A stretch of DNA of 64,000 nt, from positions 193,913 to 257,912 of the forward strand of contig CAWJGT010000006.1 in NCBI GenBank assembly GCA_963842525.1, given 5' to 3'. The stretch comes from an uncultured Holophagales bacterium. GTDB lineage: Bacteria > Acidobacteriota > Thermoanaerobaculia > Multivoradales > UBA5704. Shown piece by piece: positions 33,269-50,997 of the stretch. Numbering within the stretch: position 1 is the stretch's first letter; each line of letters opens with the position of its first letter. The position numbers and the translations under genes were made by a program. The notes below the pieces were generated by a model. It did no database searches, was not told the origin of the DNA, and saw only the letters and a program-made list of their open reading frames with translations.

Positions 33269-33269
33269 C

Positions 33270-34013
33270 GGCCAGGCCGGCGAAGGTCCCGGTCCTCGTC
33301 CTCGGCACCTACCACTTCGACAACCCGAACCTCGACTACGTCAAGTCCAACGTGGACGACCACCTCGCCGAGAAGCGCCAGAAGGAGATCCAGCAGGTGG
33401 TCGACCTCCTGGCGAAGCTCAAGCCCACGAAGATCGCCGTGGAGTTTCCAGAAGGAGATGGCCGTCTCCAAAGCCGGTACGAGGCGTACGTCAAGGGAGA
33501 GCACACCTGACCGCCAACGAGACCGAGCAGCTCGGCTTCCGTCTCGCGAAACAGCTCGGCCATGCCAGGATCCATCCCGTGGACCACAAGCTCGACATGG
33601 ACTTCGAAGCCGTCATGAACGCCGCCCAGCAGAGCGGAGACCGCAAGTTCCTGGAGACCGTCCAGAGCGCCATGGTCATGATCCAGGACCTCCAGAAGCG
33701 CCAATCCACCCAGACCGTCCGCGAGAACCTGGCTGAGATCAATGATCCCCAGATGGCGGCCACCGCGCGTGACCTCTACCTGCAGCTCTCCAGGGTGCGC
33801 ACTACTGACAAGTACGTGGGAGCCGACGTGCTGGCCGGCTGGTACCAGCGCAACTTCCGGATCTTCGCCAACCTCGTCCGGGTGATCGAAACCCCCGAGG
33901 ACCGCCTCCTGGTGATCTTCGGCTCAGGCCATCTGGCGACCCTGCGGGAGCTGGTGCGCAGCAGCCCGGATCTGGAATTTGTGGAAGCCGGGGAGTATCT
34001 GGGGACGCGGTAG
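33270..34013 (+). pseudogene. DUF5694-like protein lacking its N-terminus (frameshift at ~33500)
   Basis: VLVLGTYHFDNP, PTKIAVE, NETEQLGFRLA, WYQRNFRIFANL, IFGSGH. Confidence 0.65.
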
Positions 34014-34085
34014 AGGAGCGTACGGCTCCCCTGCGAAGCATCATTTGGGGCCGATCAGTAGGATGAAACGGGTGCTCCTCTTGGC

Positions 34086-34138
34086 GCTGGGAACGCCGGC
34101 TTCCAGCCGGCCTCTTTCGCCGCGGCGGCGCTCCCAGC
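34086..34138. repeat. REP-like palindrome (third family)
   Basis: GCTGGGAACGCCGGCTTCCAGCCGGC...GGCGCTCCCAGC. Confidence 0.55.
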
Positions 34139-34184
34139 CTGGGCAGGATCAACTGCCGATTGATTCAGTGGTGGCTTGCTTGTG

Positions 34185-34532
34185 TCAGTTGTTGCTCAGT
34201 TCGGCCCGCCTAAGCTCTAACCTCCGCATAAGGACAAGCAGCTCCTCTACGATCTGTTGATCGGTACGCATTTCATGTTCCGGCTCGACCGATTGAGCTT
34301 CAGCAGTTCGTAAGACGGTCTCCATCTGGTTCCAGTTTGCATCGAAAACAATTCTGAGAACTGCTTCGCCAAGGTAGTGTTCACCTGCGGCTTTCACTGC
34401 TTTGTTGATCGTGCTCACCAAGCCAAACATGTCTTCCTTGTTGGTCGTCGTGTGCTGGAATTGTGAGAGCGGAGGGCTAAGATCTGAGAGGCGGCTGGGA
34501 CGCAAGCCCCAGGAACAGGGCCCACATCCCAT
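34185..34532 (-). pseudogene. C-terminal remnant of a TIR-domain-like protein
   Basis: SDLSPPLSQFQHTTTNKEDMFGLVSTINKA...VFDANW resembles the C-terminal half of bacterial TIR proteins; lower GC than the flanks. Confidence 0.45.
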
Positions 34533-34624
34533 CGGAAAGCCGCACGGTGCACACTCTTCCCCCAGGGCGGATGCGGACAGCCAATGGCGGCGGTCCTCGA
34601 TGCCGCCCGGAAAGGGGACTCTTT

Positions 34625-34946
34625 ATGACCCGCCGTTCTCTCTTCCTCTGCGCTGCGGTCATCGGCCTCGCTATGACCCTCGCCGCCGGACCGGCCGCGG
34701 CTGCTCCGGACCGGCTGGGGTTCCATCCCTCCACCGAGGTCCGCGGCCCTCTTTGCTCCGGTGTGGGACTTCCTCTCCTCTCTGCTCTCGGGCTGGGAGA
34801 CTTCCGATACCCGCTGCGGCATCGATCCCGACGGTTATACGTTCTGCGGGGAGACCGGGGGACCCGGCACGAGCCTCGATAACCGCTGCGGCATCGATCC
34901 CGACGGCCATACGTTCTGCGTGGACACGCCTCCGTTGAACGGCTGA
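34625..34946 (+). CDS. Small secreted peptide precursor with two CGIDPDG-x-TFC cores (apparent frameshift at ~34740)
   Basis: Signal peptide MTRRSLFLCAAVIGLAMTLAAGPAAA; amphipathic VWDFLSSLLSGW; DTRCGIDPDGYTFC and DNRCGIDPDGHTFC. Confidence 0.65.
34806..34920 (+). repeat. Two 43-bp direct repeats encoding the peptide core
   Basis: 34806-34848 and 34878-34920 are nearly identical. Confidence 0.85.
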
Positions 34947-35049
34947 TCCCTCCGGGCCGGAGGAGAAGGCGGCTCCTCCGGCTCGCTTTTCCGTGCCCTC
35001 TTGCCCCGAAGTTCTGTGTTGCGGTATATTCCCGTCGTCGAGAACGACG

Positions 35050-35319
35050 ATGGAACCGCCAGAGCGCCGTCCAACCCGGGAGGAGATCGATCGTCTGTTG
35101 AAGAGCATCGGTCCGCGGATCGATCGCCTTTTCCGCCGTCACGGCATCCCTCCCGAGGAGGCCGAAAGGCAGATCGGCGAGGCGTTGACCATCCTGGTCT
35201 TTCGCTGGGACCGGATACGCAATCCCAAGTGGTGGTTGCTCGACCGGCTTGGAAAGACGGCCCGGCGGTTCTCGACTCATTCCCCAGAGGAGCCTGACGA
35301 TGAAGAGGCGCCGTCCTGA
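35050..35319 (+). CDS. Small ECF sigma factor region-2-like protein (no region 4)
   Basis: RLFRRHGIPPEEAERQIGEALTILVFRWDRIRNPKWWL resembles sigma-2 (xAEDxxQE...W..I..P..WL). Confidence 0.55.
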   Translation: MEPPERRPTREEIDRLLKSIGPRIDRLFRRHGIPPEEAERQIGEALTILVFRWDRIRNPKWWLLDRLGKTARRFSTHSPEEPDDEEAPS

Positions 35320-36499
35320 GGCCGAGCCCACAGTTCCGCAGGAGACGGAGTACGGCGCGATGTTCGAACGCATGTCCAGCGCCGCGGGCAGGCAGGTCGA
35401 GTCGCTTTTCCGCGAAGTCGACGTGGCGGCCGGACTCCTTGCCGAGATGCTCGGAGCTTCCCGAGGCCGAGCGGCGGGCTCTTCTCGATCAGGGAGTCCG
35501 GTTCCGTTCCCTGAGGCTCTGCGATCTGCTCGTGGCGAGGAGCCGTGAGGTCTGGTTCCACGATCCGACCCAGGCCGTGTCGCTGGCAGAAGTCGCGGTC
35601 GCTGTGGCGGAGCGGCTGGACGAGGGGCACTACGGATTGACGTTAGCCGAGGATGCCCGGGCATCGGCCTGGGCTCACCTGGGCAATGCGCTGCGGATCG
35701 CCGCGGATCATCGCAGGGCCGAGGCGGCACTCGATAAGGCCGAGACCCACCTCCAGCGCAGCGGTGGCGAGGCCTACACCGAGGCGCTTGATTCTGAGCT
35801 TCCGGGCCTCGCTACGTAGTGCCCAGGGACCTTCATGAGGAAGCGGTCCGGTAGCTCGACGATGCGATCGCCATCTACCGCGAGGCGCGGGACCGCCATC
35901 TGGAAGGTCGTACGCTGATCAAGAAGGGGACCACGCTTGGCTATGCGGGCCAGTTCAAGGAGGCGGTCCGGCTGATCCGCCGTGGGCTGTCGAAAATCGA
36001 TCTCGTCCAAGAGCCGGGTCTGTTGGTGACGGCGCATCACAATCTCATTCTTTTCCTGACCGAGAGCGGCCAGCATCAGCAGGCGCGAGAGGATCTCGCC
36101 AGGACGCGGCAGCTCTACCGCGATCTGGGTGAGCGGATGAACCTGGTGCGGCTGCGCTGGCTGGAGGGCAAGATCGCCCGGGAGGAGGGGGCTCTGGAGG
36201 AGGCCGGAGCCGCTCTGCGGGAGGCGCGGGATGCGTTCCTCCAAGAAGGGATCGCGGTCGACGCCGCTCTGGTCTCTCTGGATCTGGCCGTCCTCTATGC
36301 CCGCCCAGGAGACACGGCGGCGATCCGGCAACTCGCCGTCGAGATGCTCCCCATCCTCCAAGCCGGCGGCGTCCATCCCGACGCCATGGCAGCCCTGCTC
36401 CTCTTTCAGCAGGCCGCCGAAGCGGACGAGGTCACCCTCGATCTCCTCGACCAGATCGCCGCCTCGGTCCGCCGTGTGCACGGCCGTCCGGGCCGGTGA
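35300..36499 (+). CDS. TPR-like protein, paralog of 8214-9554 (several frameshifts)
   Basis: RFRSLRLCDLL, RASAWAHLGNALR, AHHNLILFL, RLRWLEGKIA, ALVSLDLAVLY. Confidence 0.7.
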
Positions 36500-36540
36500 G
36501 CGGCCCTAGCGGCCTCGGCGTTCCGTCCCTGCGGCCGATC

Positions 36541-36559
36541 CCGGCAGCTCTGCTGCCGG
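36541..36559. terminator. Hairpin downstream of the TPR gene
   Basis: CCGGCAGC-TCT-GCTGCCGG; no clear U-tract. Confidence 0.3.
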
Positions 36560-36776
36560 CGCAGATAAGCTTATCCTCGCGGCATGCGCTTATCTGGAGC
36601 GGATACGGGTCACCCATGAGCATGCCGGGCGTTTCCGCTTTCCAGGATATCGCTCTCTGGAAACGCTGCGTCCGGCTCCGGCAGGTCTCGCCTAGATCCT
36701 TTATCGCTCTCCCTATCCAAAGAGGTGTGTCCCCTGTCTTCTGTAGTATTCAAGCCATCCGTAGGAGGGAACGTCC

Positions 36777-37877
36777 ATGCCCGCAAGTCCGTCTCAATCT
36801 TCGCGAGGGCTGCTCGCCGCAGGTCTCGCGCTGGCCGGTCTCCTGTTCGTCGTACCCCGCCACGCCTGGGCCCAGGGCTGAGTGGCGGCCCGCCTCGACA
36901 CGCCCGTGCTTGGCGTGCAAGACACCTATTCCGGACCGAACCGCTGGCAGGTCTCGACGAGCTGGCGCCATCAGCGCTCCCATCGCCATTTCGTGGGCTC
37001 CGAGGAGCAGCACGAGCGCGCGGAAGAGGCCAGCGAGGTCATCAACACGCTCGAGCTCTTCGAGATCGGGTTCCGCTACAACCCCAACGAGCTGTGGAGC
37101 CTCTCGCTCAACATCCCGTATCTGATGGCCGAGAGATCGAGCCCGATCCGCGACGCCAACCGCGTCGTGATCGACCGCAGCCTCACGCAGGCGCACTCCC
37201 TCAGCGACATCACGCTGACCGCGCGCCGTTTGCTCTGGAAGCCGCAGGAGCATCCGGACGGCAACGTCTCGTTCGGGCTGGGCTTCAAGCTCCCCACCGG
37301 CAACGACGACGTGTATGACACGCGGGAGAGGCTCGTCAACGGGCAGCGCGTCCAGAGCGTCGAGAGCGTCGACCAGTCGATCCAGCCGGGCGACGGCGGG
37401 TTCGGCGTGATCGTCGACCTCCAGGTCTTCCACCGCATCGGTCGCAGCAATGGCATGTTCTACGGCTCGGGGACCTACCTGATCAACCCGGAGAACACCA
37501 ACGGCGTGCCCACCTTCCGCAACAACCTGGGCGAGGAGGTGATGTCGATCGCCGACCAGTACGTGGCCCGGATAGGCGCTGCCTACTCCAGGGAGAGTTG
37601 GAAGGGGTTCGGAGCGAGCCTGGGCGGCCGCATCGAGGGGGTGGCGGTCGAGGACCTGATCGGCGAGAGCGACGGCTTCCGGCGTCCGGGGTATGCCATC
37701 TCGGCCGAGCCGGGCCTGAGCTACTCGCGGGGGGCGCACACCTGGTCGCTGGCGGTCCCGGTCGCTCTCTACCGCAACCGCCAGAGGAGCGTCGCCGACC
37801 GCCTGATCCCCGGGCGCCACGGCGACGCGGCGTTCGCCGACTACGTCGTCATGTTCGGGTACGGACAGAAATTCTGA
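36777..37877 (+). CDS. Outer-membrane beta-barrel (transporter-like) protein with an in-frame UGA; candidate selenoprotein
   Basis: RBS AGGAGG, ATG 36777, signal peptide ending AWA, then QG-UGA(36879-36881)-VAAR in frame with a 331-aa barrel ORF (GLGFKLPTG, DQSIQPGDGG, C-terminal F). Confidence 0.7.
36899..36917 (+). promoter_or_regulatory. Candidate bacterial SECIS hairpin
   Basis: Stem CACGCC/GGCGTG with loop CGTGCTT (G at loop position 2); loop begins 24 nt after UGA. Confidence 0.45.
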
Positions 37878-37884
37878 GAGAAAT

Positions 37885-37912
37885 TCCTCACCCCCTGGCC
37901 CGGGGGTGAGGG
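37885..37912. repeat. Short CCTCACCCCC...GGGGGTGAGG palindrome
   Basis: Minimal member of the same family, lying between convergent genes. Confidence 0.6.
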
Positions 37913-37953
37913 ACCCGGCCGTGCGCTAGGAATCGCACTCCACGCAGGGCGCT

Positions 37954-38871
37954 TCACGATTCTGACCGTCCGGCTCCCAGCGCTGCTGCGGCAGTGTCGT
38001 GCACCGGAGTCTCGACGCCGGCCCGGCGGCCGAGGCGGGAGACGGCTCCGCTGAGGTCGTCGATCTCCGTGGGCCCGCCTGATTCCAGGTCCAGGAGGAA
38101 GCTCGGCTTGATCCCTGGGGCCAGGGAGTCGACGAAGGCGAGGATCTTCGACTCGTCGTCGCTGGAGAGCGCCACGCCGAGGGAGCGGCCGACGGCGAGC
38201 ACCTCGTGGACTGCCCTTTCGATCAGGAGATACCCCAGCGGCGTGTCCCGGATCGGGCCGACGGACGAGCGGGAGAGGCCACAAGCGGCGGCCATGGAGG
38301 CGATGAAGGCGAGCTTCCGCCACAGGTCGGCGGTGATGTCGGTTGAAGCCCGGGCGTTCACGCCGGCCTCCCGAAAGGCGGCGGCGATGCGTTCCGCGCG
38401 CTCGGAGGTCCCGCCCCGCCTCTCGCCCACGACCACGCGCTGGAACGGGCTCCGGCGCTCGACGGCTCCCGGCGAGATCCGGGCGGCGCTGATCTCCGTC
38501 AAACCGCCGAGCACCCGTTCGTCCGGGACGCCGCCCGCGATCAGCCGATCGGCGGCCTCGACTCCGTTGAGCAGCGGCAGGATGACCGCGCCGTTATCGG
38601 CCAGGAGCCGCGCCGCCGGGACGATCTCCGGCAGCGAGTAGTTCTTGACGGCCACAACGGCGAGCTCGACCTCGCCCAACTCCTCCGGGCGGTCGCTCGC
38701 CTCGACGGCCACGGTGAATGTCTCCTCGGGTGTCCGGACCTCGAGGCCCCGCGAGCGGAGAGCATCGAGGTGATCCCCTCGGGCCAGCAGGGCCACGGCA
38801 TGACCGGCGCGTGCAAGGATGCCGCCGTAGTAACCGCCGACTCCGCCTGCTCCCAGGATCGCGATTTTCAT
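37954..38871 (-). CDS. panE: Ketopantoate reductase (2-dehydropantoate 2-reductase)
   Basis: MKIAILGAGGVGGYYG, AVKNY, LLNGV, LWRKL, SFLLDL...TEIDDLSG. Confidence 0.88.
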   Translation of the reverse strand: MKIAILGAGGVGGYYGGILARAGHAVALLARGDHLDALRSRGLEVRTPEETFTVAVEASDRPEELGEVELAVVAVKNYSLPEIVPAARLLADNGAVILPLLNGVEAADRLIAGGVPDERVLGGLTEISAARISPGAVERRSPFQRVVVGERRGGTSERAERIAAAFREAGVNARASTDITADLWRKLAFIASMAAACGLSRSSVGPIRDTPLGYLLIERAVHEVLAVGRSLGVALSSDDESKILAFVDSLAPGIKPSFLLDLESGGPTEIDDLSGAVSRLGRRAGVETPVHDTAAAALGAGRSES

Positions 38872-38976
38872 CTCCTTCTCCAGTGTACCTCGGCACGGCT
38901 TAAACAAAACGCACCGTTGCGGGTCTCATCGATCAGCCGCAACGAGGAGCACACTTGGCACAAAGCGAGGAGGCAG

Positions 38977-40899
38977 ATGGAGGCAGCGGAACGTCTGGCC
39001 AGGTCATCCCTGGATGACATCGTCGACATTCCCGGACATGTGTGCTTCGTCGAGGACCTCCTCGGCAGGTACGACCTCGACAGCAGCCGGAAAGACACCT
39101 GGACGGCCGCTCTGGGGAGGATCCGCACCCGGCAGACGGACCCGGACCTCTATCTCGCGGTCGTCGGCGAATTTACGAGCGGCAAGAGCTCTCTCGTCAA
39201 TGCGCTGATCCGGCAGGAGCTCCTGCCGACTGATGTCCTGCCGGCAACCACTGCCGCGGCAACGCTGGTGCGGTATGGCGACCAGCCCCGGCTGCGGGTG
39301 GACTATATCGACGGACGGCATGAGGAATTCCTGAATGGGCACGGACAGCCCAGCCAGAGCCTCGGCCCTCTTGTGCACCGGGTCACGGCTATCGAGGAGG
39401 TCGCGAGCACCGTCACCCACGTCACAGTGCACTATCCGGCTCCGGTGCTGCGCCAGGGCCTGGTGGTGGTGGATACGCCAGGCGCCAACGTCGAGAATCC
39501 CCGTCACGTGGAGCTCGCCGGATGGGTCCTCCGAGAGCTTTGCGATGCGGCGATCGTTGCAGTGCCCGCCAGTATCCCGGTCGCGGACACCCTGGCGGAT
39601 TTTCTGCGCGTCCATCTCCAGGACAGCCTGCACCGGTGCGTGTTCCTCGCCACCAAGATCGATTCGATTCCCGAGAGGGATCGCCCGCGGCTTCTGGAGA
39701 TGATAGCGAGCCGGCTCACCTCCAAGCTCGGAATCGAAAAACCCGTGGTGCTGCCGGCGAGCGCCATAGCGGCACTCGGGAAGCCACTGGCTGACGGCAC
39801 GGATTCTCGCACTCTGGGGCCGGCGGGCGAGGCCTATCGGGCGCTGCAGGCCCAATTCATGGAAACCGAGGAGACGATCGCCCGGACGCTCCAGGAACAG
39901 CGGACGCTGATCCTGCTCGAGCGCCTATCGTCCCTCGTCTCCACCGTCCTCGATGGCCTCAAGGCGGAGCTAGAGGCCGTGGAGCAACGCTACCAGGTGG
40001 ACCACGCGGCGCTCGAAGCGAACCGGATTCGCGAGCTCGCACCCTACATCGAACAGAGCAAGGCCCGGCATGGGAAATCGCTCGCGTTGCAACTCGATCC
40101 GCTGGTCATCAACGGGCGGGAGATGGTAGCCGCGTCGCGGAAGAGAATTCTGGAACAACTCAAGATAAGGATCGATAAGGCTGTCAGTCGGATAGGCCTC
40201 GAAAACGTCGTCAGCGAAGCGGCGTGGATGCTGGGTGAGGAGGCACGGGCGCTGCAGGAGAAACTCGGTACAGTTTTTTCAAGGATTCGAGAGGCAGCTC
40301 AGGAGGAGATTGACAGATTCGAGGCCAAGTTTCTGCGATTGCACCCATCTCTCCAGACGCTTGACGGGAGGATCATGCTCGATGGAGTCGAAGGAGGAAA
40401 GAGTCTTCCGAGAGATTTTTCTCCTGTGTTGGCCTTGGCCTTGACGCCCGTGATTGACTATATGCGTGAGGTGAGCTCGAAGATAAATTCCCGTACTTGG
40501 GTGGGCGCGCTCATTGGATGCCTTTTCTGTGGTGTCGGCGCCATTCCGGGAGCCATTATCGGCAACCGGTCCGGCCCCCCGCTCGAAGAGCTTCGGCGGA
40601 CATGCTGGGACAAGTCGCGTTCTGCAATGGATAACAACTTCTCTGCTCTCGGCTCTGCGATCGACCAGCAACTCAGGAAAGCGCAGGACGATGTCCGCCG
40701 GCAGTTGAGTCAGACCATCGATCGCTATTTTGACCAATACGACTCCCTGTTCCAGCGGATGGTCTCTACGGATCAGCAGAGGGCGCGAGAGCTGGATCTC
40801 TTGCGACGCAAAGTGCAGGACGACCTCTCCAGCCTCGAACAGCGCCGCCGGCGAATGCAGCAGGCACGCGCCGGCCTTCAGGGGCTTCACAAGTTGTAA
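38977..40899 (+). CDS. Bacterial dynamin-like GTPase 1
   Basis: RBS GAGGAGG; GEFTSGKSS, PATT, DTPG, TKID; coiled coils; Gly-rich hydrophobic hairpin WVGALIGCLFCGVGAIPGAIIG. Confidence 0.9.
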   Translation: MEAAERLARSSLDDIVDIPGHVCFVEDLLGRYDLDSSRKDTWTAALGRIRTRQTDPDLYLAVVGEFTSGKSSLVNALIRQELLPTDVLPATTAAATLVRYGDQPRLRVDYIDGRHEEFLNGHGQPSQSLGPLVHRVTAIEEVASTVTHVTVHYPAPVLRQGLVVVDTPGANVENPRHVELAGWVLRELCDAAIVAVPASIPVADTLADFLRVHLQDSLHRCVFLATKIDSIPERDRPRLLEMIASRLTSKLGIEKPVVLPASAIAALGKPLADGTDSRTLGPAGEAYRALQAQFMETEETIARTLQEQRTLILLERLSSLVSTVLDGLKAELEAVEQRYQVDHAALEANRIRELAPYIEQSKARHGKSLALQLDPLVINGREMVAASRKRILEQLKIRIDKAVSRIGLENVVSEAAWMLGEEARALQEKLGTVFSRIREAAQEEIDRFEAKFLRLHPSLQTLDGRIMLDGVEGGKSLPRDFSPVLALALTPVIDYMREVSSKINSRTWVGALIGCLFCGVGAIPGAIIGNRSGPPLEELRRTCWDKSRSAMDNNFSALGSAIDQQLRKAQDDVRRQLSQTIDRYFDQYDSLFQRMVSTDQQRARELDLLRRKVQDDLSSLEQRRRRMQQARAGLQGLHKL

Positions 40900-40979
40900 G
40901 GCTTAAACAAAACGCACCCTTGCGTGTCTCATCGATCAGCCGCAAAGAGGAGCCCACTTCGGTACAAAGCGAGGAGGAA

Positions 40980-42922
40980 ATGGAGACAGCGGAGCGTCTG
41001 GCCAGTTCATCCCTGGATGAGATCGTCGACATTCCCGGACATGTGTGCTTCGTCGAGGACCTCCTCGGCAGGTACGTCCTCGACAGCAGCCGGAAAGACA
41101 CCTGGACGGCCGCTCTGGAGAGGATCCGTGACCGTCAGACGGATCCGGACCTCTATCTCGCGGTCGTCGGCGAGTTCTCGAGCGGCAAGAGCTCTCTCGT
41201 CAATGCGCTGATCCGGCAGGAGCTCTGCCGACCGACGTCCTGCCGGCAACCACGGCTGCAGCCACGCTGGTGCGGTATGGCGACCATCCCCGGCTGCGAG
41301 TGGACTACACCGACGGACGGCATGAGGAATTCCTGAATGGGCACGGACGGCCCGGCCAGAGCCTCGGCCCTCTCGTGCAACGGTTCACGGCCGTCGAGGA
41401 GGTCGCGAGCACCGTGTCCCGCGTCACGGTGCACTATCCGGCGCCGGTGCTGCGCCAGGGTCTGGTGGTGGTGGACACGCCGGGCGCCAACGTCGAGAAC
41501 CCCCGTCACGTGGAGGTCGCCGGGTGGGTCCTCCGTGAACAGTGCGATGCGGCGATCGTCGCGGTTCCCGCCAGCTTCCCGGTCGCGGACACCTTGGCGG
41601 AGTTCCTGCGCATCCACTTCCAGGACAGCCTGCACCGGTGTGTGTTCCTGGCCACCAAGATCGACCTGATTTCCGCGGGAGAGCGCCCGCGGCTCCTGGA
41701 GACGATCGCGAGCCGGCTCACTTCCAAGCTCGGGATCGAGCGACCGGTGGTGCTGCCGGCGAGCGCCACGGCGGCGCTTGGGGTGCCGTTGCCGGACGGT
41801 ACGGGCCCCAGCACTCTCGGACCGGCGGGTGAGGCGTACCGGGCGCTTCGGGCCCAGTTCGTGGAGACCGAGGAGACGATCGCCCGGACGCTCCAGGAGC
41901 AGCGGGCCCTGATCCTTCTCGAGCGCCTCTCCTCCCTCGTCTCGACCGTTCTCGACGGCCTCAAGGCGGAGCTAGAGGACGTGGAGCAACGTTATCAGGC
42001 GGACCATGCGGCGCTCGAAGCGAACCGGATCCGCGAGCTCGCACCCTATATCAAGCAGAGCAAGGCCCGGCACGCGAAGTCGCTCGCGTTGCGGCTCGAT
42101 CCGGTGGCCATCCGGGGTCGGTCGATCGTTGCCAACGCGCGCGAGAAGGCCCACAAAAAGATCAAGAAGACGCTGGACGAGGCAACCGACAAGGCAGCGC
42201 TTCAGGCAGCCTCTACCCAGGGCGTGACGGAGCTGCTGGACGATCAGACGGACAAGATACAAAGCAAGCTGGGGAAGGTTCTTCGGGACATGGGGGAAAT
42301 CGCCCTGAACGAAATCCAGTCCTTCGAGGCTTCTTTCCTCCAGATCTATCAGTCACTGGCCACCTTGGGAGGAAGAATCGCCCTGGACGGTCAGACCGCG
42401 TCTCGTAAGCTGTCCGAGATTCCCAAAGAGCTTCTCGTTTCCGATGCGCTCGATGTGATCCGCAAAAGCGACGAGAAGGTGGACGGCATCATGAAAGGGT
42501 TTGCCTGGACCGGTGCTGCGATCGGGACCGCCATCTCGCCGATCATCGGGACCGCGATCGGCTTCCTCGCCGGAGCCTTCCTCGGTGCATTTTTCGAGCC
42601 CTCCATCGACGAGCTGCGCAATCGTTGTTGGCAGGCGTTGCGCCCCGACGTCGAGCAGAGATTCGAGAGGCTCGAGTCGGCCGTCGAGGAGAGGGTTGCC
42701 ACGGCGGAAGGGGCGATCCGGCAGCAGTTGAACGCTGTCATCGATCGCTATTTCGAGCAGTACGACGCCCTGGTCCGGCGGATGATTGCCGCGGACCAGA
42801 AGAAAGCGCGAGAGCTGGGCCGCCTGCGACGGAAGGTGCGCGATGACCTGGCCAGCCTCGAGCAGCGCAGCGAGCAGTTGCATCTCGCGCGCACCGGTCT
42901 CCAGAGACTTCACAAGCTGTAA
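40980..42922 (+). CDS. Bacterial dynamin-like GTPase 2 (1-bp frameshift at ~41226)
   Basis: GEFSSGKSS, DTPG, TKID; GAGCTCTG versus GAGCTCCTG in the paralog; glycine-zipper TM segment. Confidence 0.85.
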
Positions 42923-42932
42923 GGAGGACACC

Positions 42933-44699
42933 ATGGAGCATCTCACGTACGAGCCGCAGGCTACCCTCGCGGCTCCGCCGCCGGACGCGGAGCCGGCGCA
43001 TCTCGTGGAAGCGGTCCGCAAGCTCGTCGAAGATACGGGCTCGGAGGTCCTGCGCCGGGAATGGCGGCGCCTGGGTGCCCGCTCCCGCGAGCCACACTTC
43101 TCTGTCGCCGTGGTCGGTGAGTTCTCGCGCGGCAAGAGCACCCTCGTCAACCGGCTGCTCGGTGTGGACCTTCTGCCGGTCGGCCCTGTCCCCACCACCG
43201 CCCTGCTGACGCGCGTCGCATACGCCCCCGAAGCCTCGCTCGTCGGGATCCTGCCCGATGGCCGCCGCGAGGATCTCGGAACCGGCCCGGAGGCCTGGGA
43301 GAAGGCCGCCGCGGAGTCTCGTTGGGCGGCGCTGGAGGTCGCCGTCCCCAACCAGTGGCTCCGCGACAGCGGGCTCCAGCTCCTCGATACCCCCGGTGCC
43401 GGCGATCTCGGCGAGGAGCGGATGGAAGAGGTGATCGATGCAATTTCGGTTTGTGAGGCAACTGTGGTCGTCATCAGCGCGACGATGGCGCTCAGCCTCA
43501 CGGAACGATCTTTCCTGGAACAGCATATCCTCGCGCGCAGCGTGCCGCGCGTCCTTGCCGTGCTGACGCGCCTCGACGAGGTCCCGCCAGGCGAGCGGAC
43601 CCTGGTGATCAATCACGTCCGGGACCGGCTTGCCACCATTCATCCGGACATCGCCTTTGCCGTGTCCCATGCAGAGCCCGTGCTGCCGCCGGACAGCGGC
43701 GTCGAGATCGCCGGCCCGGCGGCGATTGCGGACAAGCTCCTGTCCTGGGCTGCCGGTCCGGAACGCCAGGACCGTGCGCGGCGGCAGCTCAACTCCAACC
43801 TCGCCCGCGTCCTCGCACTGGTCGAAGTGGATTTGGCGGCCCGCAGGGCGGCGGCCGGCCTTGCCGTGGAGGAGCGGCGTCGCAAGGCCGAAGCGGAACG
43901 GCAGGAGCTCGACCGGATGCGTCTCGACTGGGAAGACCTCCGCCTGGGGCTGCGGGCACGGAACGAGGCCCTCCTGGGTTGGGTGGAGGAGCAACTCGCC
44001 GCGGCGGAGCGCTCTGTTTCCGGGAGGTTGGGCCATGAGCTTCAACAAGCGCCAGACGCGCGGCTCTGGTGCCGTCAAGAGCTGCCCTTCCGGCTTCGGC
44101 AGGAGCTCGGAGCCGTGGCACGAGCCGTGGGAGAGTCGCTCCAGCACCAGATGACAGCCGATATGGGATGGCTGCGCCAGGAGGTGAAAGCGCGATTCGA
44201 GAGACGGCTCGACGCGGTCTGCGTCGAGCCGCTGCTCGGGTTTACGGAGGAGGTGGATCCCGAAACCGGGGATGCGCGTGACCTCGGTTCCCTGCGGCTG
44301 ATGACGCGCGTGGGAGCCGGTGTGGCCGGCATCCTGGCGTATGCCCTCTACGGCCCGCTCGGCATTGCGGCGGGCGTCGGCGCCGGCCTCGTCGGTGAAT
44401 ACCTGATCAATCGCCTTGATGAGACTCAGCGAGAGGCGCTGGTCCGCGTGCTCTCGATGGCGATCGACAAGGCATTCAAGCGCGGGCGGGACCTTGCGGT
44501 TGCGCGATTGAGGTCCGCCTACACGTCGATCCTTGCGGACGCGGTCCGCCAAGAGGAGATCTGGTACGAGGCCCGCCGGGAGGCGCTCGGGCGCAGCATG
44601 CCCTCCGAGGCCTCGGAGCCTGAGCACATCGAAGCGAGCTTTGCCGAGTTGCGCCGCTTCCAGAGCCTGCTGGCCAATGAACAGGAGGACCAACGATGA
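42933..44699 (+). CDS. Bacterial dynamin-like GTPase 3
   Basis: RBS AAGGAGG; GEFSRGKST, PTT, DTPG, TRLD; hydrophobic VGAGVAGILAYALYGPLGIAAGVGAGLVG. Confidence 0.9.
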   Translation: MEHLTYEPQATLAAPPPDAEPAHLVEAVRKLVEDTGSEVLRREWRRLGARSREPHFSVAVVGEFSRGKSTLVNRLLGVDLLPVGPVPTTALLTRVAYAPEASLVGILPDGRREDLGTGPEAWEKAAAESRWAALEVAVPNQWLRDSGLQLLDTPGAGDLGEERMEEVIDAISVCEATVVVISATMALSLTERSFLEQHILARSVPRVLAVLTRLDEVPPGERTLVINHVRDRLATIHPDIAFAVSHAEPVLPPDSGVEIAGPAAIADKLLSWAAGPERQDRARRQLNSNLARVLALVEVDLAARRAAAGLAVEERRRKAEAERQELDRMRLDWEDLRLGLRARNEALLGWVEEQLAAAERSVSGRLGHELQQAPDARLWCRQELPFRLRQELGAVARAVGESLQHQMTADMGWLRQEVKARFERRLDAVCVEPLLGFTEEVDPETGDARDLGSLRLMTRVGAGVAGILAYALYGPLGIAAGVGAGLVGEYLINRLDETQREALVRVLSMAIDKAFKRGRDLAVARLRSAYTSILADAVRQEEIWYEARREALGRSMPSEASEPEHIEASFAELRRFQSLLANEQEDQR

Positions 44700-46780
44700 C
44701 CGAGCCCCAGACCAGCGAGATCGAAACCCTTAGCGGGTTCGAGATCTTTCAGCGCAACCTCCAGTCCCTCGCCCGCGCGACCTCGCGGGTGAGCAGCGTT
44801 TATGACCAGCTTGGCATGGAGAGCCGCGCCCAGGCGCTCGCCGTTCTCAAGAAACGGCTCGAATCGGATGGCTTCAAAGTCATGGTTCTGGGAGAGTTCA
44901 AGCGCGGCAAGAGTACATTCATCAACGCGCTGCTGGGCGAGGAGGTGCTCCCCGCCTCAGTCGTTCCCTGCACGGCCGTGATCAATGAGATCAAGTGGGG
45001 CGAAGAGAAGAGAGCCGTCCTCCATTTCCGCCACCCTCAGCCCGCGGTGCCCGGCGTCAAGCTGCCCCGCGAGGTCGCCGCTCATATACGGCGGGGGAAC
45101 GGCGGGCCGGTCCCGCCTCTCGAGGTGCCGGTGGCGAGCCTGGATACGTTCGTGGCCATTCCTGATCCGGGCAGAGAGCAGGCGGATTCGATTGCGGAGT
45201 CGCCGTACGCGCGGGTCGAGGTCTCCTGGCCGCTGGAGCTCTGCCGGCAAGGCATCGAGATCATCGATTCGCCCGGTCTGAACGAGAACGTCACACGGGC
45301 CCGCGTTGCCAAGGATTATGTCGCCAACGTCGATGCGATCCTGTTCGTGATGTCCTGTGACGCGCTCGGGGCCGAATCGGAGCTGCGGGTGATCGATCAG
45401 GAGCTGCGTGGCGTGGGCCACGAATACCTTTTCTTCATCTGCAACCGTTTCGACCAGATCCGGCCGGCGGACCGGCCGCGGCTCGTCGAGTACGCGAAGA
45501 AAAAGTTGGGGGGACGCACGGCGCTGCAGGATGGCATCTTCTTCCTTTCTGCGCTCCAGGGATTGGACGCGCGCCGGCGGGACGACGACGCCCTGCTCGA
45601 AAGCTCCGGCCTGGCAGGGCTCGAAAGAGAGCTGACCCGTTTCCTTACCGAGGACCGTGCCAAGGTGAAGCTCCTGCAGCCGGCCCGGGAACTGAGCTTC
45701 GCTCTGAGTGAAGCGCGCGACAAGATCCTCCCGGCCCAGCGGGCCGCTCTCGACGTGAGCCTCGCCACCCTGGAAGCCCGAGTCGAAGAGCTTTCCCCGC
45801 GCCTCGCAGATGCGGAGCGCTCCAAGCGGCAGATCGTCGCCAACATCAACCATCACCGGCAGTCGTTGCAATCCGAGGTCCGTCTCGAAGCCGAGCGCTT
45901 CCTGCGCGACATTGCCGACTCGCTCGAGACCTGGGTGGATGAGTTGGATCTGGAGAGCACGGTCAGTCTCTTCAAGCTGAAGCACGAAGAGCAGATCGAG
46001 GCCATGGCCAAGGAGATCTGCACCAAGGTCGGCGTCAAGGTCGAAGAGGAGGCGGTGGAGTGGAGCCAGCAGACCCTGCAACCCCTGGTGGAGAAGAGGT
46101 TGGAGGCGATGGCGGAAGACGCCAGTGTGCGGGTGAGCGACTTCTGCTCCAGGATCGACGAGATCCGCACAGCGTTTTCAAAAGTGGAGCTGCGGGAGAA
46201 CGAGGAGCTGAAGGATGCCTCGGGTGGCCAGCGGCTGATAGCTGCCGTCGGCGGACTCCTTCTCGGAGACGTTTTCAGCATGGCGCACGGCGCCCGGTTC
46301 GGCTTCAAGGGGCTCGCGTCGAGCATCCTGGCCCAGGCCGCCACCTTCGGTCTCCTCTACGGCGTCCTGGGCATTGCGAACCCGTTCGTTCTCATCCCGG
46401 CTCTGCTTGGCGCCGGCGCGGCGACGGCCTGGCTCCGAACCGGTGCAATCACCGGGAAGGCAAAGAAAGAGATCGCGCGCTCGCTCACCGAGCAGTTCCG
46501 GAGCGAGCTGGGATCGACTGCCCAGAAGATCGCCGATGAGGTCCACGAGGGCACGCAGGAGTTTGTGAGCACTGCCGAAGAAGGGCTGGATCGCGAGATC
46601 AAGAGCCTCCGCGAACAGATGGATTCCGTGCTCAGCGACAAGAAGGCGGGGGAGGTGCAGGTGCAGGCAAAGAAGCGGCTCCTGGCCGATCTGGATGGCG
46701 AGCTCCGGGACGTCGATGGTGTGATCACTGAGCTGATTTTTGCTGTCGCCGGAAGGCCGAGAACAGCCTGCGCGATGTGA
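44696..46780 (+). CDS. Bacterial dynamin-like GTPase 4
   Basis: ATGA overlap; GEFKRGKST, PCT, DSPG, NRFD, LSA; hydrophobic paddle region. Confidence 0.92.
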   Translation: MTEPQTSEIETLSGFEIFQRNLQSLARATSRVSSVYDQLGMESRAQALAVLKKRLESDGFKVMVLGEFKRGKSTFINALLGEEVLPASVVPCTAVINEIKWGEEKRAVLHFRHPQPAVPGVKLPREVAAHIRRGNGGPVPPLEVPVASLDTFVAIPDPGREQADSIAESPYARVEVSWPLELCRQGIEIIDSPGLNENVTRARVAKDYVANVDAILFVMSCDALGAESELRVIDQELRGVGHEYLFFICNRFDQIRPADRPRLVEYAKKKLGGRTALQDGIFFLSALQGLDARRRDDDALLESSGLAGLERELTRFLTEDRAKVKLLQPARELSFALSEARDKILPAQRAALDVSLATLEARVEELSPRLADAERSKRQIVANINHHRQSLQSEVRLEAERFLRDIADSLETWVDELDLESTVSLFKLKHEEQIEAMAKEICTKVGVKVEEEAVEWSQQTLQPLVEKRLEAMAEDASVRVSDFCSRIDEIRTAFSKVELRENEELKDASGGQRLIAAVGGLLLGDVFSMAHGARFGFKGLASSILAQAATFGLLYGVLGIANPFVLIPALLGAGAATAWLRTGAITGKAKKEIARSLTEQFRSELGSTAQKIADEVHEGTQEFVSTAEEGLDREIKSLREQMDSVLSDKKAGEVQVQAKKRLLADLDGELRDVDGVITELIFAVAGRPRTACAM

Positions 46781-46804
46781 GCTGCCGTCGACAGGAGAGA
46801 TCTT

Positions 46805-49450
46805 ATGACCGGGACGCGATCAGGCAGCTCCGTACAGAATGAGAGCCTGGGCAGCTTCGAGAGGAATCAGCGGGCGCTGGTCAGCCTCGCCTCGCGTACC
46901 GCCACCGTCGTTGGCCGACTCGGCATGGAGGACCGGGCCAGAGCATTGACCCAACTGGCCGCCAGAATCGGGTCCGAGCAGTCCCGGATTCTCGTGATCG
47001 GCGAGTTCAAGCGGGGCAAGAGCACGCTCGTCAATGCCTTGCTGGGAGAAGAGGTGCTGCCCTCCTCGGTAGTCCCCTGTACGGCGCTCATCAGCGAGAT
47101 CAAATGGGGAAAGTGGAAGCGCTTGTTCCTGCACTTCCGTCACCCCTTGCCGTCACCCCTGCCGGAAGGGCTTTCTCCCGACCTGATGGTCCATCTCCGG
47201 AATGGCGGCGGCTACCCGGCTCCGCTCGAGATCCCCGTCGACCGGCTGGCAGACTATTTGGTGATTCGCGATCCCTGGAAAGATCCGGCAGACGCGGCTC
47301 CCGACGCCCTGTACTCGCACGTCGAGGTGTTCTGGCCCGCTGAGCTGCTGAGGCACGGGATCGAGATCGTCGACTCTCCGGGTCTCAATGCACAGCGCGA
47401 CCCCATTGCCCGCGAATACATCGCGAGAGCGGACGCCATCCTCTTTGTGCTCGGGTGCAATGGGCTGGCCTCGCAATCGGAGCTGCGATTCATCGACAAA
47501 GATCTGGACGAGACCGAGCGCGAGAATCTCCTCTTCGTCTGCAACCGCTTCGACGAAATCCGGGAGAGCGACCGTCCGATCGTCATGACCTACGGCAGGG
47601 AGAGACTTGTCAGCAGGACTGGGCTGGGCGAGGCCGGAGTCGTCTTCCTCTCGGCCCGAGAGGCGCTGAGCGCCCGTTCGGGGGAAGGCGGCACGCTCCT
47701 CGAGAAATCGGGCCTGCTTGCGCTCGAGAGCGCGCTCGCTGTCTCTTTGACCTCGGGCCGTCACCGTCTGAAGCTGCTTCAGCCGGCCCGCGAGCTCATT
47801 GACGCGAGCGAAGAGGCTCGCGGCGAGATGCGTGTACGAAGTTCCTCTCTCGAGCAGGATCTAGCCCGGCTGGAAGCCAAGGTCGCGCAGGCCACCGACG
47901 AGTTGGACATCGCCGATCGCGCATGCGGCCGGATTCTGGCTCGCATCGATGAAGGCCGCCGCAGACTGCGGTGGGACGCGATTCATCCTGCAGCCAGTGA
48001 GTTCCTGTCCGAGCTTGCGGAGCGTCTGTGCCACTGGATGGAGAATGTGGCGCTCCAGAGGCGATCCCCTTCGGCATTTCCCGGGTTTGCCGCGCAGGTG
48101 GAGGACGCAGCCAAGGAGGTCTGCCGTGACGTCGGCGTGCGGCTCGGAAAGGAGATCGCGAAGTGGAGGCTTGCAGGTTTGGAGCCGCTCGTGGCCGCCT
48201 GGTTCGAGACGATGGTACAGGAAGTGAGCCCGCACTCGACCAGGTTTTTCTCCAGGATCGAGCGTATCCGCGATGGTTTCCTGGATTCGGGAGGAGCGGG
48301 TGCGGAGCACTCGCAAGGTATGACCCGTGGCGAAGAAATCGGCGCCGAGTTTCTGGCCCGTGTCTTTGCCTACAGCGTCCTGACGAGGATGCTGGAGGGC
48401 TCGCATACGATCCTCCTTTTGCCGATCTTCCTTGGCCAGATGTCGCGAATCTTCCCGTTTATCAACGGCTTCTGGCTGTGGCGGCTCAAGGGGCACCTCT
48501 CTCGCGTCTTCGTGGGCTGCTTCCAGGCCGAGCTCGCTACATTGGCGAATCTCATTGCGGAAGAGATCCATACACGGACCCGCGAGATCAGCCGCACGGC
48601 GGAAGACCTCCTGTGGCGGGAGCTCCAAGCGGCCCGCGACCAGTTGCACGCCGCGGCACTCGACTTGCGGGCGCGCCAAGAGCAGGCTGCGGCCCAGAGG
48701 GGTCTGTTCTCGGAGATCGAGTCGGAGATCCAGGATCTCCAGCTTGCAGTCCATCGCGTCATCGTCGAGGTGGCCGGAGACCGGCCTGGTCCAAAGATGC
48801 TGGACCGGTCTGCGGAGCCGCCTTCGGGCGGAGGGGCGCAGCGCATCCTTTTTCTCGCCGCCGACCCATTCGGTGAGCTGCGCCTCGCTGTGGAGCTCCG
48901 CAACATCCGGGAGCAACTCGCGCGGACCGCGCCGCCGGACATGCGCAGTGACGTTCGCATCGAGCTGGCCGTCCGGATGGAGGACTTGACGCGCGCTCTC
49001 AATGAGCACTCTCCTGACATCGTGCACTTCGCCGGACACGGAGAAGAGGACGGGACGATTTATCTCTTGAATGGAGACGGCCAGCCCCATCCCATTGCAC
49101 CGTGTGTCCTCGCAGAGCTGTTTGACTTGGTCTCCAATCGGATCGAGTGCATCGTGCTCAACTGTTGCCACTCACAGAAGCTGGCGCGCGCCATCCGCAA
49201 GAGAATTCGCTATGTGATCGGCATGCGGCGTGACATCGAAGACAAAGCGGCGATCGCTTTCTCGGTCGGCTTCTATCAGGCTCTGGGAGCAGGACGCTCC
49301 GTCGAGTCGGCCTTTCGCTTCGGATGCGTCCAAACTGCAGGGGTGGACCTGCGCGAAGGCCGGAATCCGGCCCTCTGGAAAGAAGGGTACCTCGTTACCG
49401 CAAGATCCGCCGCGCAACGGCGGAGGCGCGACAGCACAGTGCAATCCTGA
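46805..49450 (+). CDS. Dynamin-like GTPase fused to a C-terminal CHAT (caspase-like) protease domain
   Basis: GEFKRGKST, PCT, DSPG, NRFD; C-terminal RILFLAADP...LRLAVE...IVHFAGHG...IVLNCCHS...VIGM...FYQALGAG. Confidence 0.88.
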   Translation: MTGTRSGSSVQNESLGSFERNQRALVSLASRTATVVGRLGMEDRARALTQLAARIGSEQSRILVIGEFKRGKSTLVNALLGEEVLPSSVVPCTALISEIKWGKWKRLFLHFRHPLPSPLPEGLSPDLMVHLRNGGGYPAPLEIPVDRLADYLVIRDPWKDPADAAPDALYSHVEVFWPAELLRHGIEIVDSPGLNAQRDPIAREYIARADAILFVLGCNGLASQSELRFIDKDLDETERENLLFVCNRFDEIRESDRPIVMTYGRERLVSRTGLGEAGVVFLSAREALSARSGEGGTLLEKSGLLALESALAVSLTSGRHRLKLLQPARELIDASEEARGEMRVRSSSLEQDLARLEAKVAQATDELDIADRACGRILARIDEGRRRLRWDAIHPAASEFLSELAERLCHWMENVALQRRSPSAFPGFAAQVEDAAKEVCRDVGVRLGKEIAKWRLAGLEPLVAAWFETMVQEVSPHSTRFFSRIERIRDGFLDSGGAGAEHSQGMTRGEEIGAEFLARVFAYSVLTRMLEGSHTILLLPIFLGQMSRIFPFINGFWLWRLKGHLSRVFVGCFQAELATLANLIAEEIHTRTREISRTAEDLLWRELQAARDQLHAAALDLRARQEQAAAQRGLFSEIESEIQDLQLAVHRVIVEVAGDRPGPKMLDRSAEPPSGGGAQRILFLAADPFGELRLAVELRNIREQLARTAPPDMRSDVRIELAVRMEDLTRALNEHSPDIVHFAGHGEEDGTIYLLNGDGQPHPIAPCVLAELFDLVSNRIECIVLNCCHSQKLARAIRKRIRYVIGMRRDIEDKAAIAFSVGFYQALGAGRSVESAFRFGCVQTAGVDLREGRNPALWKEGYLVTARSAAQRRRRDSTVQS

Positions 49451-49465
49451 GGCTTGGGTACCGGA

Positions 49466-50920
49466 TCACCCCGCCACAGCCCGCGTTTCGTCTTCGGGCA
49501 ACAGATGCTCGATCGAATTGGCGTAGTAGCGCAGGACCAGCAGCTCTTCGGGGCGGACCTGATAGAGGCCGTCCTTCTCTTCGACGAGGTGGCGGAGGGT
49601 GAGCATCCGCAGGCCGGCTTCGAGGGCATAGTCCTGGTCCTGGCGTGGGATGTAGACGTGGACGCCGGCGGCTGCGAGTTCGGCCATGCGGCGATGGGCG
49701 TGGGCTTTCAAATCGAGCTCGGAGAGCGGCTCGGCGGCGCGCTCGACGAAGATCGAGGCGACCAGCGGCACCGGCAGGACCGGGATCACCCGTCCCACTT
49801 CGGCCATCAGATCGGCGCCGAGCCGTTCGAGGTGGACCGAGCGTTCCTCCTTCTCCAGCCGCCGGAAGTCGAGACCCCGCTCGGTCGTCCAGCGCCGCAT
49901 CGAGATCGGCGAGCCGAAGTTGACACAGGCATAGCCGAAGCGGTGCCAGCGGCTCTGGAGCATCTGCTTGACGTTGCGCAGGGCGAAGCGGAGGGTCGTG
50001 GTTGCGGCGTGGAGCGCATCGGGCTTGTGGGCCTCCGGCTGCATGTCGAGCAGGAGCGTCCGGTCCTCCAGCACCCGGTCGTAGTTGATCCCCACCGGGA
50101 TGAAGACGAGATCGCGCTCCCCCTGCGGATCGAAGCCGCGCAGCATGTAGTCGAGGAGGCCCAGCCTGGGTTTGCGCAGCCGGCCGTCCCGCGACAGGCC
50201 GCCTTCGGGGTAGACCGCCTGCGTCACGCCCCCGGCGGTCGCCATGTGGATGTAGCGCTCGAGCACCCGCCGGTAGAGCGGGTCGCCCGAGCTCCGCCGC
50301 ACGAAGTAGGCCCCGGTCGAGCGGATCAGCGTCTGGAGCGGCCAGATGCGCGCCCACTCGCCCACGGCGTAGGAGAGGGCCGTCTGGCTCGCCGCCAGGT
50401 AGGCCACCAGGACGTAGTCCATGTTGCTCCGGTGGTTCATGAGGAACACGACCGTCGAGGTGGGCGCCACGGCCGCGAGGCCTGTCTCGTCCGAGTAGCC
50501 GAGACGCACCCGATAGAGAAGACGGGCAACTTTGCGTGACAGCCAATAGCCGACGCGGAAGTAGAAGTATGCGTTGAAGGCCGGGACGATCTCGCGGGCG
50601 TAACGCTCCACGCGGGCCATGACCACGTCCCGCGGCATGCCCTGCTCGCGCGCGAAGGCGTCCACCGCCTGGACCACCTTGGGGTCGTACTGCAGCCGAT
50701 CGACGAGCACCTGGCGCTTGGTGCGGTGGAAGGGCGGGATTTCGAGCTTGAGGCGGGTGTTCAGCTCGTCGATGACGCGGTTGACCCGCCGCCGCAGGAA
50801 CCAGCGGACGCTGGGGACCAGCAGCCGGTCGAGCACCGCCCAGGCAGAGAGCAGGGCGAGCACGACGGCGAGCCAGACGGGAAGTGCGACGGTGCCGGTC
50901 ATGGAGAACCCTCGCGCCAT
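49466..50920 (-). CDS. Glycerol-3-phosphate / 1-acyl-G3P acyltransferase (PlsB-like)
   Basis: NHRSNMD (HxxxxD), GAYFVRR, YPEGGLSRDG. Confidence 0.88.
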   Translation of the reverse strand: MARGFSMTGTVALPVWLAVVLALLSAWAVLDRLLVPSVRWFLRRRVNRVIDELNTRLKLEIPPFHRTKRQVLVDRLQYDPKVVQAVDAFAREQGMPRDVVMARVERYAREIVPAFNAYFYFRVGYWLSRKVARLLYRVRLGYSDETGLAAVAPTSTVVFLMNHRSNMDYVLVAYLAASQTALSYAVGEWARIWPLQTLIRSTGAYFVRRSSGDPLYRRVLERYIHMATAGGVTQAVYPEGGLSRDGRLRKPRLGLLDYMLRGFDPQGERDLVFIPVGINYDRVLEDRTLLLDMQPEAHKPDALHAATTTLRFALRNVKQMLQSRWHRFGYACVNFGSPISMRRWTTERGLDFRRLEKEERSVHLERLGADLMAEVGRVIPVLPVPLVASIFVERAAEPLSELDLKAHAHRRMAELAAAGVHVYIPRQDQDYALEAGLRMLTLRHLVEEKDGLYQVRPEELLVLRYYANSIEHLLPEDETRAVAG

Positions 50921-50997
50921 GATATCCGGCCCCTGCGTCACGAGAAAGCGCCCTGCGGCAACTTATTAGTAGGGGCGAGGAAAGTAGGACCGAAGCC

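Follow-up and report, generated by a model that had tools for sequence, protein, structure and literature searches.

The window analyzed here, a stretch of 64,000 nucleotides from an uncultured Holophagales bacterium (positions 193913-257912 of contig C6 in a 9.95-Mb assembly of 34 contigs, genome label G000), carries a cluster of genes for dynamin-like proteins (DLPs), g1 to g5, the last of which encodes a dynamin-like GTPase joined to a C-terminal CHAT domain (Table 1). An original prediction made from this DNA had described five co-oriented dynamin-like genes. All five products indeed scored above the Pfam cut-off used for Dynamin_N (27 bits), but g2 as assembled is broken by a 1-nucleotide frameshift. 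The G1 P-loop, G3 DxxG, and G4 (T/N)(K/R)xD motifs are legible in the five translations, with the G1 motif of g2 lying in a separate frame. In the Pfam scan of g1 to g5, the bacterial dynamin helical domain PF21808 was matched by g4 only (E 2.3e-17).

The genes are as tightly packed as had been claimed: an ATGA overlap joins g3 and g4, and gaps of 10 and 24 nucleotides separate g2 from g3 and g4 from g5, respectively. Shine-Dalgarno–like sequences (GAGGAGG/AGGAGGA) precede g1 and g4, and a promoter and terminator scan returned nothing beyond shuffled expectation. Hydropathy peaks corresponding to a Gly-rich hairpin were seen in g1 to g4; in g1, the Gly-rich hydrophobic segment lies at residues 507-530.

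The second gene is a tandem duplicate of the first. Positions 38897-40131 align with 40900-42133 at 81-93% identity per 150-nucleotide block, while the 3′ parts of the two genes are unalignable as DNA. The first 82 codons of g2, read from the ATG at 40980 and including the P-loop, are identical to g1 at 75 of 82 positions. One C of CTCCTG is absent at 41225/41226 relative to g1, and the remaining 565 codons lie in another frame, which is open. Compared to g1, this downstream frame is identical at 262 of 303 positions over g1 residues 83-385 and at 99 of 249 over residues 386-640. Such an open frame of 565 codons, diverged to 40% identity, suggests that g2 is or recently was under selection, and g2 is probably functional despite its frameshift as assembled. 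Public sequencing runs did not bear on position 41225: four soil or rhizosphere runs cover shares of 0.04-0.16 of the stretch, no RNA run was among them, and no contig spans 41225 on both sides. On contig C1 of the same assembly, at about 59.5-62.5 kb, a conserved dynamin gene of about 600 amino acids and the adjoining transporter gene are split over at least three frames. The split dynamin gene indicates that the assembly has local indel errors, an observation that bears on the frameshift in g2.

Table 1. Features of the dynamin–CHAT cluster and its flanks, in window coordinates
Feature	Position	Strand	Evidence
Leader/promoter region of g1, first 80 nucleotides of the tandemly duplicated unit	38897..38976	+	DNA self-alignment; GAGGAGG before ATG
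g1, class A dynamin-like GTPase, 640 amino acids	38977..40899	+	Dynamin_N E 4.7e-24, 85.7 bits
g2, class A′ tandem duplicate of g1	40980..42922	+	Dynamin_N E 2.7e-9, 37.7 bits, partial, on 41270-42922
g3, class B dynamin-like GTPase, 588 amino acids	42933..44699	+	Dynamin_N E 1.7e-18, 67.6 bits
g4, class C dynamin-like GTPase, BDLP-like, 694 amino acids	44696..46780	+	Dynamin_N E 8.3e-26, 91.4 bits
g5 whole, C′-CHAT fusion	46805..49450	+	Dynamin_N E 1.3e-24, 87.6 bits, plus CHAT
g5 residues 1-658, class C′ dynamin-like part	46805..48778	+	Dynamin_N E 1.3e-24; 268/646 identity to g4
g5 residues 659-677, predicted disordered linker	48779..48835	+	pLDDT <50; columns variable among fusions
g5 residues 679-865, small CHAT (caspase-like) predicted peptidase domain	48839..49399	+	PF12770, modeled fold, dyad
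g5 His745 codon	49037-49039	+	Codon checked
g5 Cys788 codon	49166-49168	+	Codon checked
PanE/ApbA reductase, flank	37954-38907	-	
GPAT-like acyltransferase, flank	49466-50941	-	
SpoIIE-family gene	31182-32417		

The CHAT domain and its fusion to a dynamin

The C-terminal CHAT domain that had been proposed for the last gene was confirmed by several lines of evidence. Residues 697-838 of g5 match CHAT PF12770 with E 1.8e-8, at 34.6 bits against a cut-off of 24 bits. A profile of 47 CHAT homologues matched one solved protein, SAVED-CHAT (PDB 8tl0, E 2.5e-27). The AlphaFold2 model of residues 671-881 reached a predicted local distance difference test score (pLDDT) of 86.4, and Foldseek ranked the 8tl0 chains at the top (E 1.5e-13, TM-score 0.74-0.78, 27-28% identity), followed by legumain, C11 peptidases, caspases, and MALT1. 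Furthermore, His745 and Cys788, which align with H375 and C422 of SAVED-CHAT (with a chain numbering offset of 20), are invariant in 8/8 fusions, in 47/47 homologues, and in 70/70 homologues, a conservation that points to retained catalysis. The g5 CHAT is thus a genuine domain with an intact dyad and a caspase-like fold in the model, and it is predicted to be a peptidase.

The PADLOC SAVED_CHAT model matches g5 only at model positions 287-451, which represent its CHAT part, the N-terminus of g5 being a dynamin. The closest CHAT homologues carry the domain at either end of highly diverse proteins. Matches in 70 such proteins comprised 69 to CHAT, 10 to TIR_2, 7 to TIR, 7 to AAA_22, 6 to AAA_35, 4 to SIR2_2, 2 to EAD1, and 1 each to EAD7 and EAD11, partner domains that would give this CHAT subfamily a conflict-system flavor. 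Small CHAT domains also occur at at least 12 places in G000. In three further proteins (P0083, P0115, and P0136), the small CHAT domain is present in two or three tandem copies.

Full-length g5 was modeled less confidently than its CHAT part (mean pLDDT 67, predicted TM-score 0.39), with a GTPase, long helices, a low-confidence paddle, and a disordered linker. In the alignment, g5 has about 26 fewer residues in the paddle region than the fused homologues do, and this region is dissimilar to theirs. A tblastn search of this region for a hidden frameshift, with four fusions and g4 as queries, gave no significant alternative-frame match.

The fusion is rare. Among 5.8 billion proteins, 65 of 7,999 candidates matched at E<=0.001, and seven besides g5 are full-length DLP-CHAT proteins of 867-911 amino acids, 38-41% identical to g5. 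One full-length homologue is labeled Thermoanaerobaculia. The 150 best matches among 1.84 billion representatives at 50% identity added one more full-length fusion (P0069) and a protein of another build (P0110, 1240 amino acids, with CHAT at residues 1046-1216). The DLP-CHAT fusion therefore appears to be rare yet kept by selection. As for its surroundings, the sole context evidence for the fused homologues is a longest-contig figure of 148,897 bp that one class B homologue (see below) and two fusions have in common; a scan of genome contigs gave no fusion, and a metagenome scan gave, among the matches listed, almost only loci with CHAT alone. A plasmid search with g4 returned two distant, cyanobacterial matches. 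Class C dynamins are also found fused to other domains, namely an Hsp70-like domain or a Ser/Thr kinase domain (P0081 and P0214).

Dynamin triplets and their cysteine peptidases

The five proteins fall into three paralogue classes. Reciprocal best hits to four loci (L020, L022, L023, and L026) and a phylogenetic tree placed g1 and g2 in class A, g3 in class B, and g4 and g5 in class C, classes A, B, and C and the peptidase class P being defined throughout by the best BLAST hit to reference sequences. The tree, a quick maximum-likelihood search with SH-aLRT support only, joined g4, g5, the class C protein of the same-genus genome G004, and eight fused proteins in one clade with a support of 99, in which the branch leading to g5 is long; P0110, with its other build, fell outside the g4/g5 clade. 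In G004 (contig C46, locus L020), the gene order is A-B-C, followed by two small open reading frames (ORFs) and a separate WD40-CHAT gene. The A, B, and C proteins of this locus are 54-55% identical to g1, g3, and g4 (54% for g1 and 55% for g3), and its WD40-CHAT protein has a CHAT domain with about 51% identity to the g5 CHAT. The two small ORFs (L020:6383-7045), placed after the class C dynamin and before WD40-CHAT, are tandem paralogues of about 100 and 118 amino acids with 55% identity; they gave no family match and no homologue in the genome of the window at E<=1e-3.

These comparisons change the definition of the system. A five-dynamin system as a unit, as originally proposed, did not hold up against BLAST, a survey of 79 loci, and the tree. 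By homology, the unit is a three-paralogue DLP operon rather than an array of five dynamins, and two lineage-specific tandem duplications (g2, and g5 as a diverged copy of g4) have been added to it, giving A, A′, B, C, C′-CHAT in the window. Another array was encountered on a low-GC (0.36) contig of an uncultured bacterium (L022:477-10198), where five co-oriented genes encode a 583-amino-acid protein with a partial dynamin P-loop region, A, B, C, and a 606-amino-acid protein with no Pfam match; expansion of the triplet is therefore not confined to the window.

A search with the class B protein g3 found 95 homologues, and the operon was surveyed with a profile of 20 class B proteins in one genome per species. 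This gave 217 stretches; confirmation left 187, and the 80 best of these correspond to 79 distinct loci. Judging from their titles, we take these loci to belong to Bacillota, Bacteroidota, Cyanobacteriota, Chloroflexota, Planctomycetota, Acidobacteriota, Desulfobacterota, and Riflebacteria. All three dynamin classes are represented in 63 of the 79 loci, a C39-like peptidase (P) lies inside the cluster in 57, and both conditions apply in 45. CHAT had been presented as the partner of the system, a role that falls elsewhere, as a rule, to the C39-like peptidase. Including two accessory genes, S and T, the most frequent gene order is P-S-B-C-A-T (20 loci), followed by P-S-B-C-A (11 loci), A-P-B-C and A-B-C (8 loci each), P-S-B-C (5 loci), and B-A-B-C (3 loci), and the remaining loci show rarer orders. 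P is lacking in 22 loci, and at least two of them (L118 and L149) end at a contig edge beside the cluster.

The P proteins have the residues of a cysteine peptidase. Gln, Cys, His, and Asp are invariant in 57/57, in the order expected for a papain-like enzyme, and 35 of the 57 match Pfam PF13529 (Peptidase_C39_2) at E<=0.001. Over 174 residues, two P proteins of unrelated loci share 30% identity. No transmembrane or hydrophobic segment was seen in the four P proteins inspected. The N-terminal parts of many P proteins contain Asp-rich DxDxDG repeats (e.g., L142:8062-9264 and L023:8017-9237), the profile of which weakly resembles the calmodulin EF-hand (best E 5e-6) and hints at a possible Ca2+ control of a cytoplasmic protease. 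No model in PADLOC 2.0 matches P, and the dynamins of two P operons match its Leo models weakly.

In Bacillota and Bacteroidota, P, S, B, C, A, and T form a six-gene operon (loci L113-L187; e.g., L142:8062-16228 and L023:8017-16196). S, present in 47 loci, is soluble and about 180 amino acids long, and T, of about 175 amino acids with a Gly-rich hydrophobic stretch, was found in 28 loci by BLAST; the members of each that were scanned gave no Pfam match. The idea that S is fused to the long class B proteins was rejected, as the S hidden Markov model (HMM) had no such match. Around 17 peptidase-less clusters, the 89 flanking ORFs included 7 with TPR, 4 with NB-ARC, 4 with protein kinase, 3 with TIR_2, and 3 with Rhomboid domains.

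An uncultured Acidobacteria locus (L116) has the order A-P-B-C. No C39-like P was found in the window, and the whole genome (96% complete) gave 0 matches at E<=0.01 to this Acidobacteria P, used as the single query. S and T likewise had no match in the six-frame translation of the window, with HMMs derived from 47 sequences of S and 28 of T. As P is missing from the window and its genome and a CHAT protein stands in its place both in the window and in G004, one cysteine protease seems to have been swapped for another: on present gene content, the CHAT peptidase has taken the place of the C39-like peptidase in this genus, fused to a dynamin in the window and separate in G004.

Genomic setting

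The cluster had been placed between housekeeping genes. Such genes, for a PanE/ApbA reductase and for a GPAT-like acyltransferase, do flank it, but the segment differs in arrangement from that in congeners. In the congeners G004 and G001, the acyltransferase directly adjoins the SpoIIE-family gene, whereas in the window these two genes are 17 kb apart. The window thus has an interposed segment of about 17 kb (32.4-49.5 kb), which contains panE as well as the cluster. In G004, panE and its neighbor lie elsewhere, without dynamins. A simple insertion between panE and the acyltransferase was considered and rejected, since these two genes are on different contigs in five congeners.

The genome averages 67.8% GC; with 64.3%, the cluster lies at the 10th percentile of 4,815 windows. 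The GC content at third codon positions is 0.74-0.82 compared to 0.85-0.91 in four neighboring housekeeping genes. Of 401 genomes sampled from the class, two, one of them G000, gave a strong class C match, and two of the six genomes of the genus (G000 and G004) showed the full cluster. With its patchy distribution, its rearrangement relative to congeners, and its lower GC content, the locus appears to be accessory in character. On the panE side, the segment at 32418-38900 has a lower GC content (0.62 at 32-35 kb), and two ORFs on its minus strand (34477-35730 and 35774-36481) have no match in Pfam, NCBIfam, or PADLOC.

Assembly-activated proteolysis and rival explanations

Compared to proteins of solved structure, g4 is closest to the bacterial dynamin-like protein (BDLP) of Nostoc (2j68, E 9.5e-42, nearly end to end), and g1 and g3 match only GTPase domains. 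The BDLP of Nostoc punctiforme (2j68/2w6d) resembles g4 in its GTPase and in a helical stalk and a hydrophobic paddle that are predicted for g4, and paired DLP operons (e.g., Campylobacter DLP1/2, 5owv) resemble the cluster in having several DLP paralogues per operon. The presence of multiple DLP paralogues in one operon is reported to suggest hetero-oligomers (PMC6104087; PMC5827413). These systems differ from the cluster in having two classes rather than three, and no protease partner has been described for them; the Nostoc class C member of a triplet operon is only distantly related to BDLP (E 5.8e-40). A review of cyanobacterial DLPs describes tandem pairs and KGK, HSR1, and chaperone-linked clades, and its main text contains no triplet and no protease partner.

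The closest solved relative of the g5 CHAT, by profile as well as by fold, is SAVED-CHAT (8tl0) of the Haliangium type III-B CRISPR/CBASS module. According to the SAVED-CHAT preprint, cA3 binding polymerizes the protein and activates CHAT, and the H375A/C422A change abolishes activity. A protease activated by polymerization, as suggested in the original prediction, would therefore have a precedent in the closest solved homologue. The sensors differ, being a dynamin-like GTPase in g5 and a cA3-binding SAVED domain in SAVED-CHAT, and the operon in the window contains no gene for a PCaspase-like second protease, a sigma factor, or an inhibitor. The caspase-containing NTPase conflict systems of Kaur et al. 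2020 (PMC7159879) are also related in content: TIR, SIR2, STAND-like ATPase, and EAD partner domains are reported there around caspase-superfamily peptidases, and the g5 CHAT subfamily shares those partners. However, the GTPase-centered systems in that report use DO-GTPases with GAP1 and not dynamins, and the words dynamin and CHAT are absent from its main text. Literature searches gave, among the papers listed, no description of a dynamin triplet with a C39-like peptidase or of a DLP-CHAT arrangement. The operon of a triplet and a cysteine peptidase is thus widespread and apparently undescribed, as the prediction had supposed for the cluster, and this agrees with weak matches to Leo models and an NCBIfam LeoA score far below the cut-off (given below).

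We tentatively favor a reading that falls a little short of even, namely that the locus is a lineage-specific, CHAT-for-C39 form of the widespread operon of a dynamin triplet and a cysteine peptidase, in which assembly on the membrane activates CHAT with a stress or defense output. The gene content, paralogy, and operon family behind it are established, as are the catalytic residues, fold, and rarity of the fusion; hetero-assembly and activation by assembly are what we infer from them, with a substrate and a defense role to match. First, the paralogues would co-assemble in a GTP-dependent manner on the cytoplasmic membrane through their hydrophobic hairpins. Second, the trigger would be a perturbed membrane, for example under phage or pore-forming stress. 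Third, assembly would bring the CHAT domains of g5, held to the C′ dynamin by a flexible linker, together or rigidify them. CHAT may then cleave some target, so that a signal at the membrane would be turned into a proteolytic stress or defense response. Assembly-activated proteolysis would be the most economical mechanism, with SAVED-CHAT as a direct structural precedent.

A broader proposal, which is possible but doubtful, is that in about eight phyla three dynamins use membrane-triggered polymerization to activate a dedicated protease (C39-like and often with Ca2+-loop-like repeats, or CHAT as here) and so form a sensor of membrane damage or phage that signals by proteolysis. If true, it would parallel assembly-activated caspases and calpain-type repair responses. 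Known roles of bacterial dynamins are in the fusion, fission, or repair of membranes and, in a few cases, in phage defense. A recurring protease partner, of two unrelated folds and covalently fused here, would offer a concrete and testable output for dynamin assembly, and it would extend the principle of a polymerization-activated caspase-like protease from SAVED nucleotide sensors to a mechanochemical GTPase. As cultured strains of Bacteroides, Nostoc, Anabaena, and Fischerella carry the broader operon, it is amenable to tests at the bench.

Several observations weigh against the favored reading. First, membrane hairpins had been predicted in all five proteins, and the prediction held for g1 to g4 but not for g5, which has no segment over the hydropathy threshold at the corresponding position; the membrane recruitment of g5 would then rely on its partners. 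Second, the protease is not obligatory, since cyanobacterial clusters of the orders A-B-C and B-A-B-C (8 and 3 of the 79 loci) are without a peptidase, and 3 of the 57 peptidase calls are below 100 bits. Third, seven of the eight fused homologues came without retrieved genomic context, and their placement in A-B-C operons cannot be claimed. Fourth, the operon encodes no candidate substrate in the form of a gasdermin, a second caspase, or a sigma factor; the flanking ORFs in the window gave no convincing match to a defense model; and the compositional deviation of the cluster is mild. Lastly, the classes are best-hit assignments, and in the quick tree, with its single type of support, the interior of the CHAT-linked clade is not resolved.

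Among the alternatives, the strongest, which we regard as somewhat unlikely, is a housekeeping or stress machine for membrane remodeling in which the protease acts on the dynamins themselves, for maturation, short forms, or turnover, and not in immunity. Proteolytic processing is known for the mitochondrial dynamins OPA1 and Mgm1. A peptidase that is a near-constant partner of A-B-C over about eight phyla (57 of 79 loci) fits a substrate inside the system, as do an operon without an external substrate and flanks without defense genes. The Rhomboid domains in 3 of the 89 ORFs flanking peptidase-less clusters, and reports of Bacillus subtilis DynA and mycobacterial IniA as membrane-integrity factors, are in line with this explanation. 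It is less easily reconciled with the patchy distribution (2 of 401 genomes of the class and 2 of 6 of the genus) and with a CHAT subfamily that is elsewhere fused to TIR, SIR2, STAND-like ATPase, and EAD domains, and the covalent fusion of a processing enzyme to one paralogue would be unusual.

It is improbable that the g5 CHAT is instead a non-catalytic adaptor, recruiting other CHAT, WD40, or STAND proteins to dynamin assemblies. The many paralogous small CHAT domains in the genome (at least 12 places) could serve such a role, and SAVED-CHAT filaments are reported to use CHAT-CHAT contacts, but the full invariance of His745 and Cys788 in all three homologue sets described above speaks against a domain released from catalysis.

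Known DLP-based defense systems were compared to the cluster as well. B. subtilis DynA is reported to cluster on the membrane upon exposure to phage or pore formers and to contribute to phage defense (PMC12998192); unlike the cluster, it is one two-headed protein without a protease, and the NCBIfam DynA model scored 45-51 bits against a cut-off of 1600. Eleos, also reported as an anti-phage DLP-based system, is defined as two genes, LeoA and LeoBC. Eleos and LeoABC of enterotoxigenic Escherichia coli share with the cluster a multi-gene, DLP-based make-up, and the PADLOC LeoA, LeoBC, and LeoB models match all five proteins weakly (best for g4, 2.2e-24). That the cluster is an ordinary member of Eleos is nevertheless very improbable: NCBIfam NF041922 (LeoA/HP0731), scanned against g4 and g5, gave 19.7 and 23 bits against a cut-off of 325; at E<=0.001, the matches of g1, g3, and g4 to solved structures do not include LeoA; and the cluster has three paralogue classes and a protease, compared to two genes and no protease in Eleos.

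Finally, an assembly artefact behind the g5 fusion or the five-gene array is hardly credible in spite of the indel errors (the split genes of contig C1 and the 1-nucleotide frameshift of g2), given that seven independent full-length fusions align end to end with g5 and that about 10% of nucleotides differ between g1 and g2, whose 3′ parts are fully diverged, so that a repeat collapsed or duplicated during assembly does not account for the pair.

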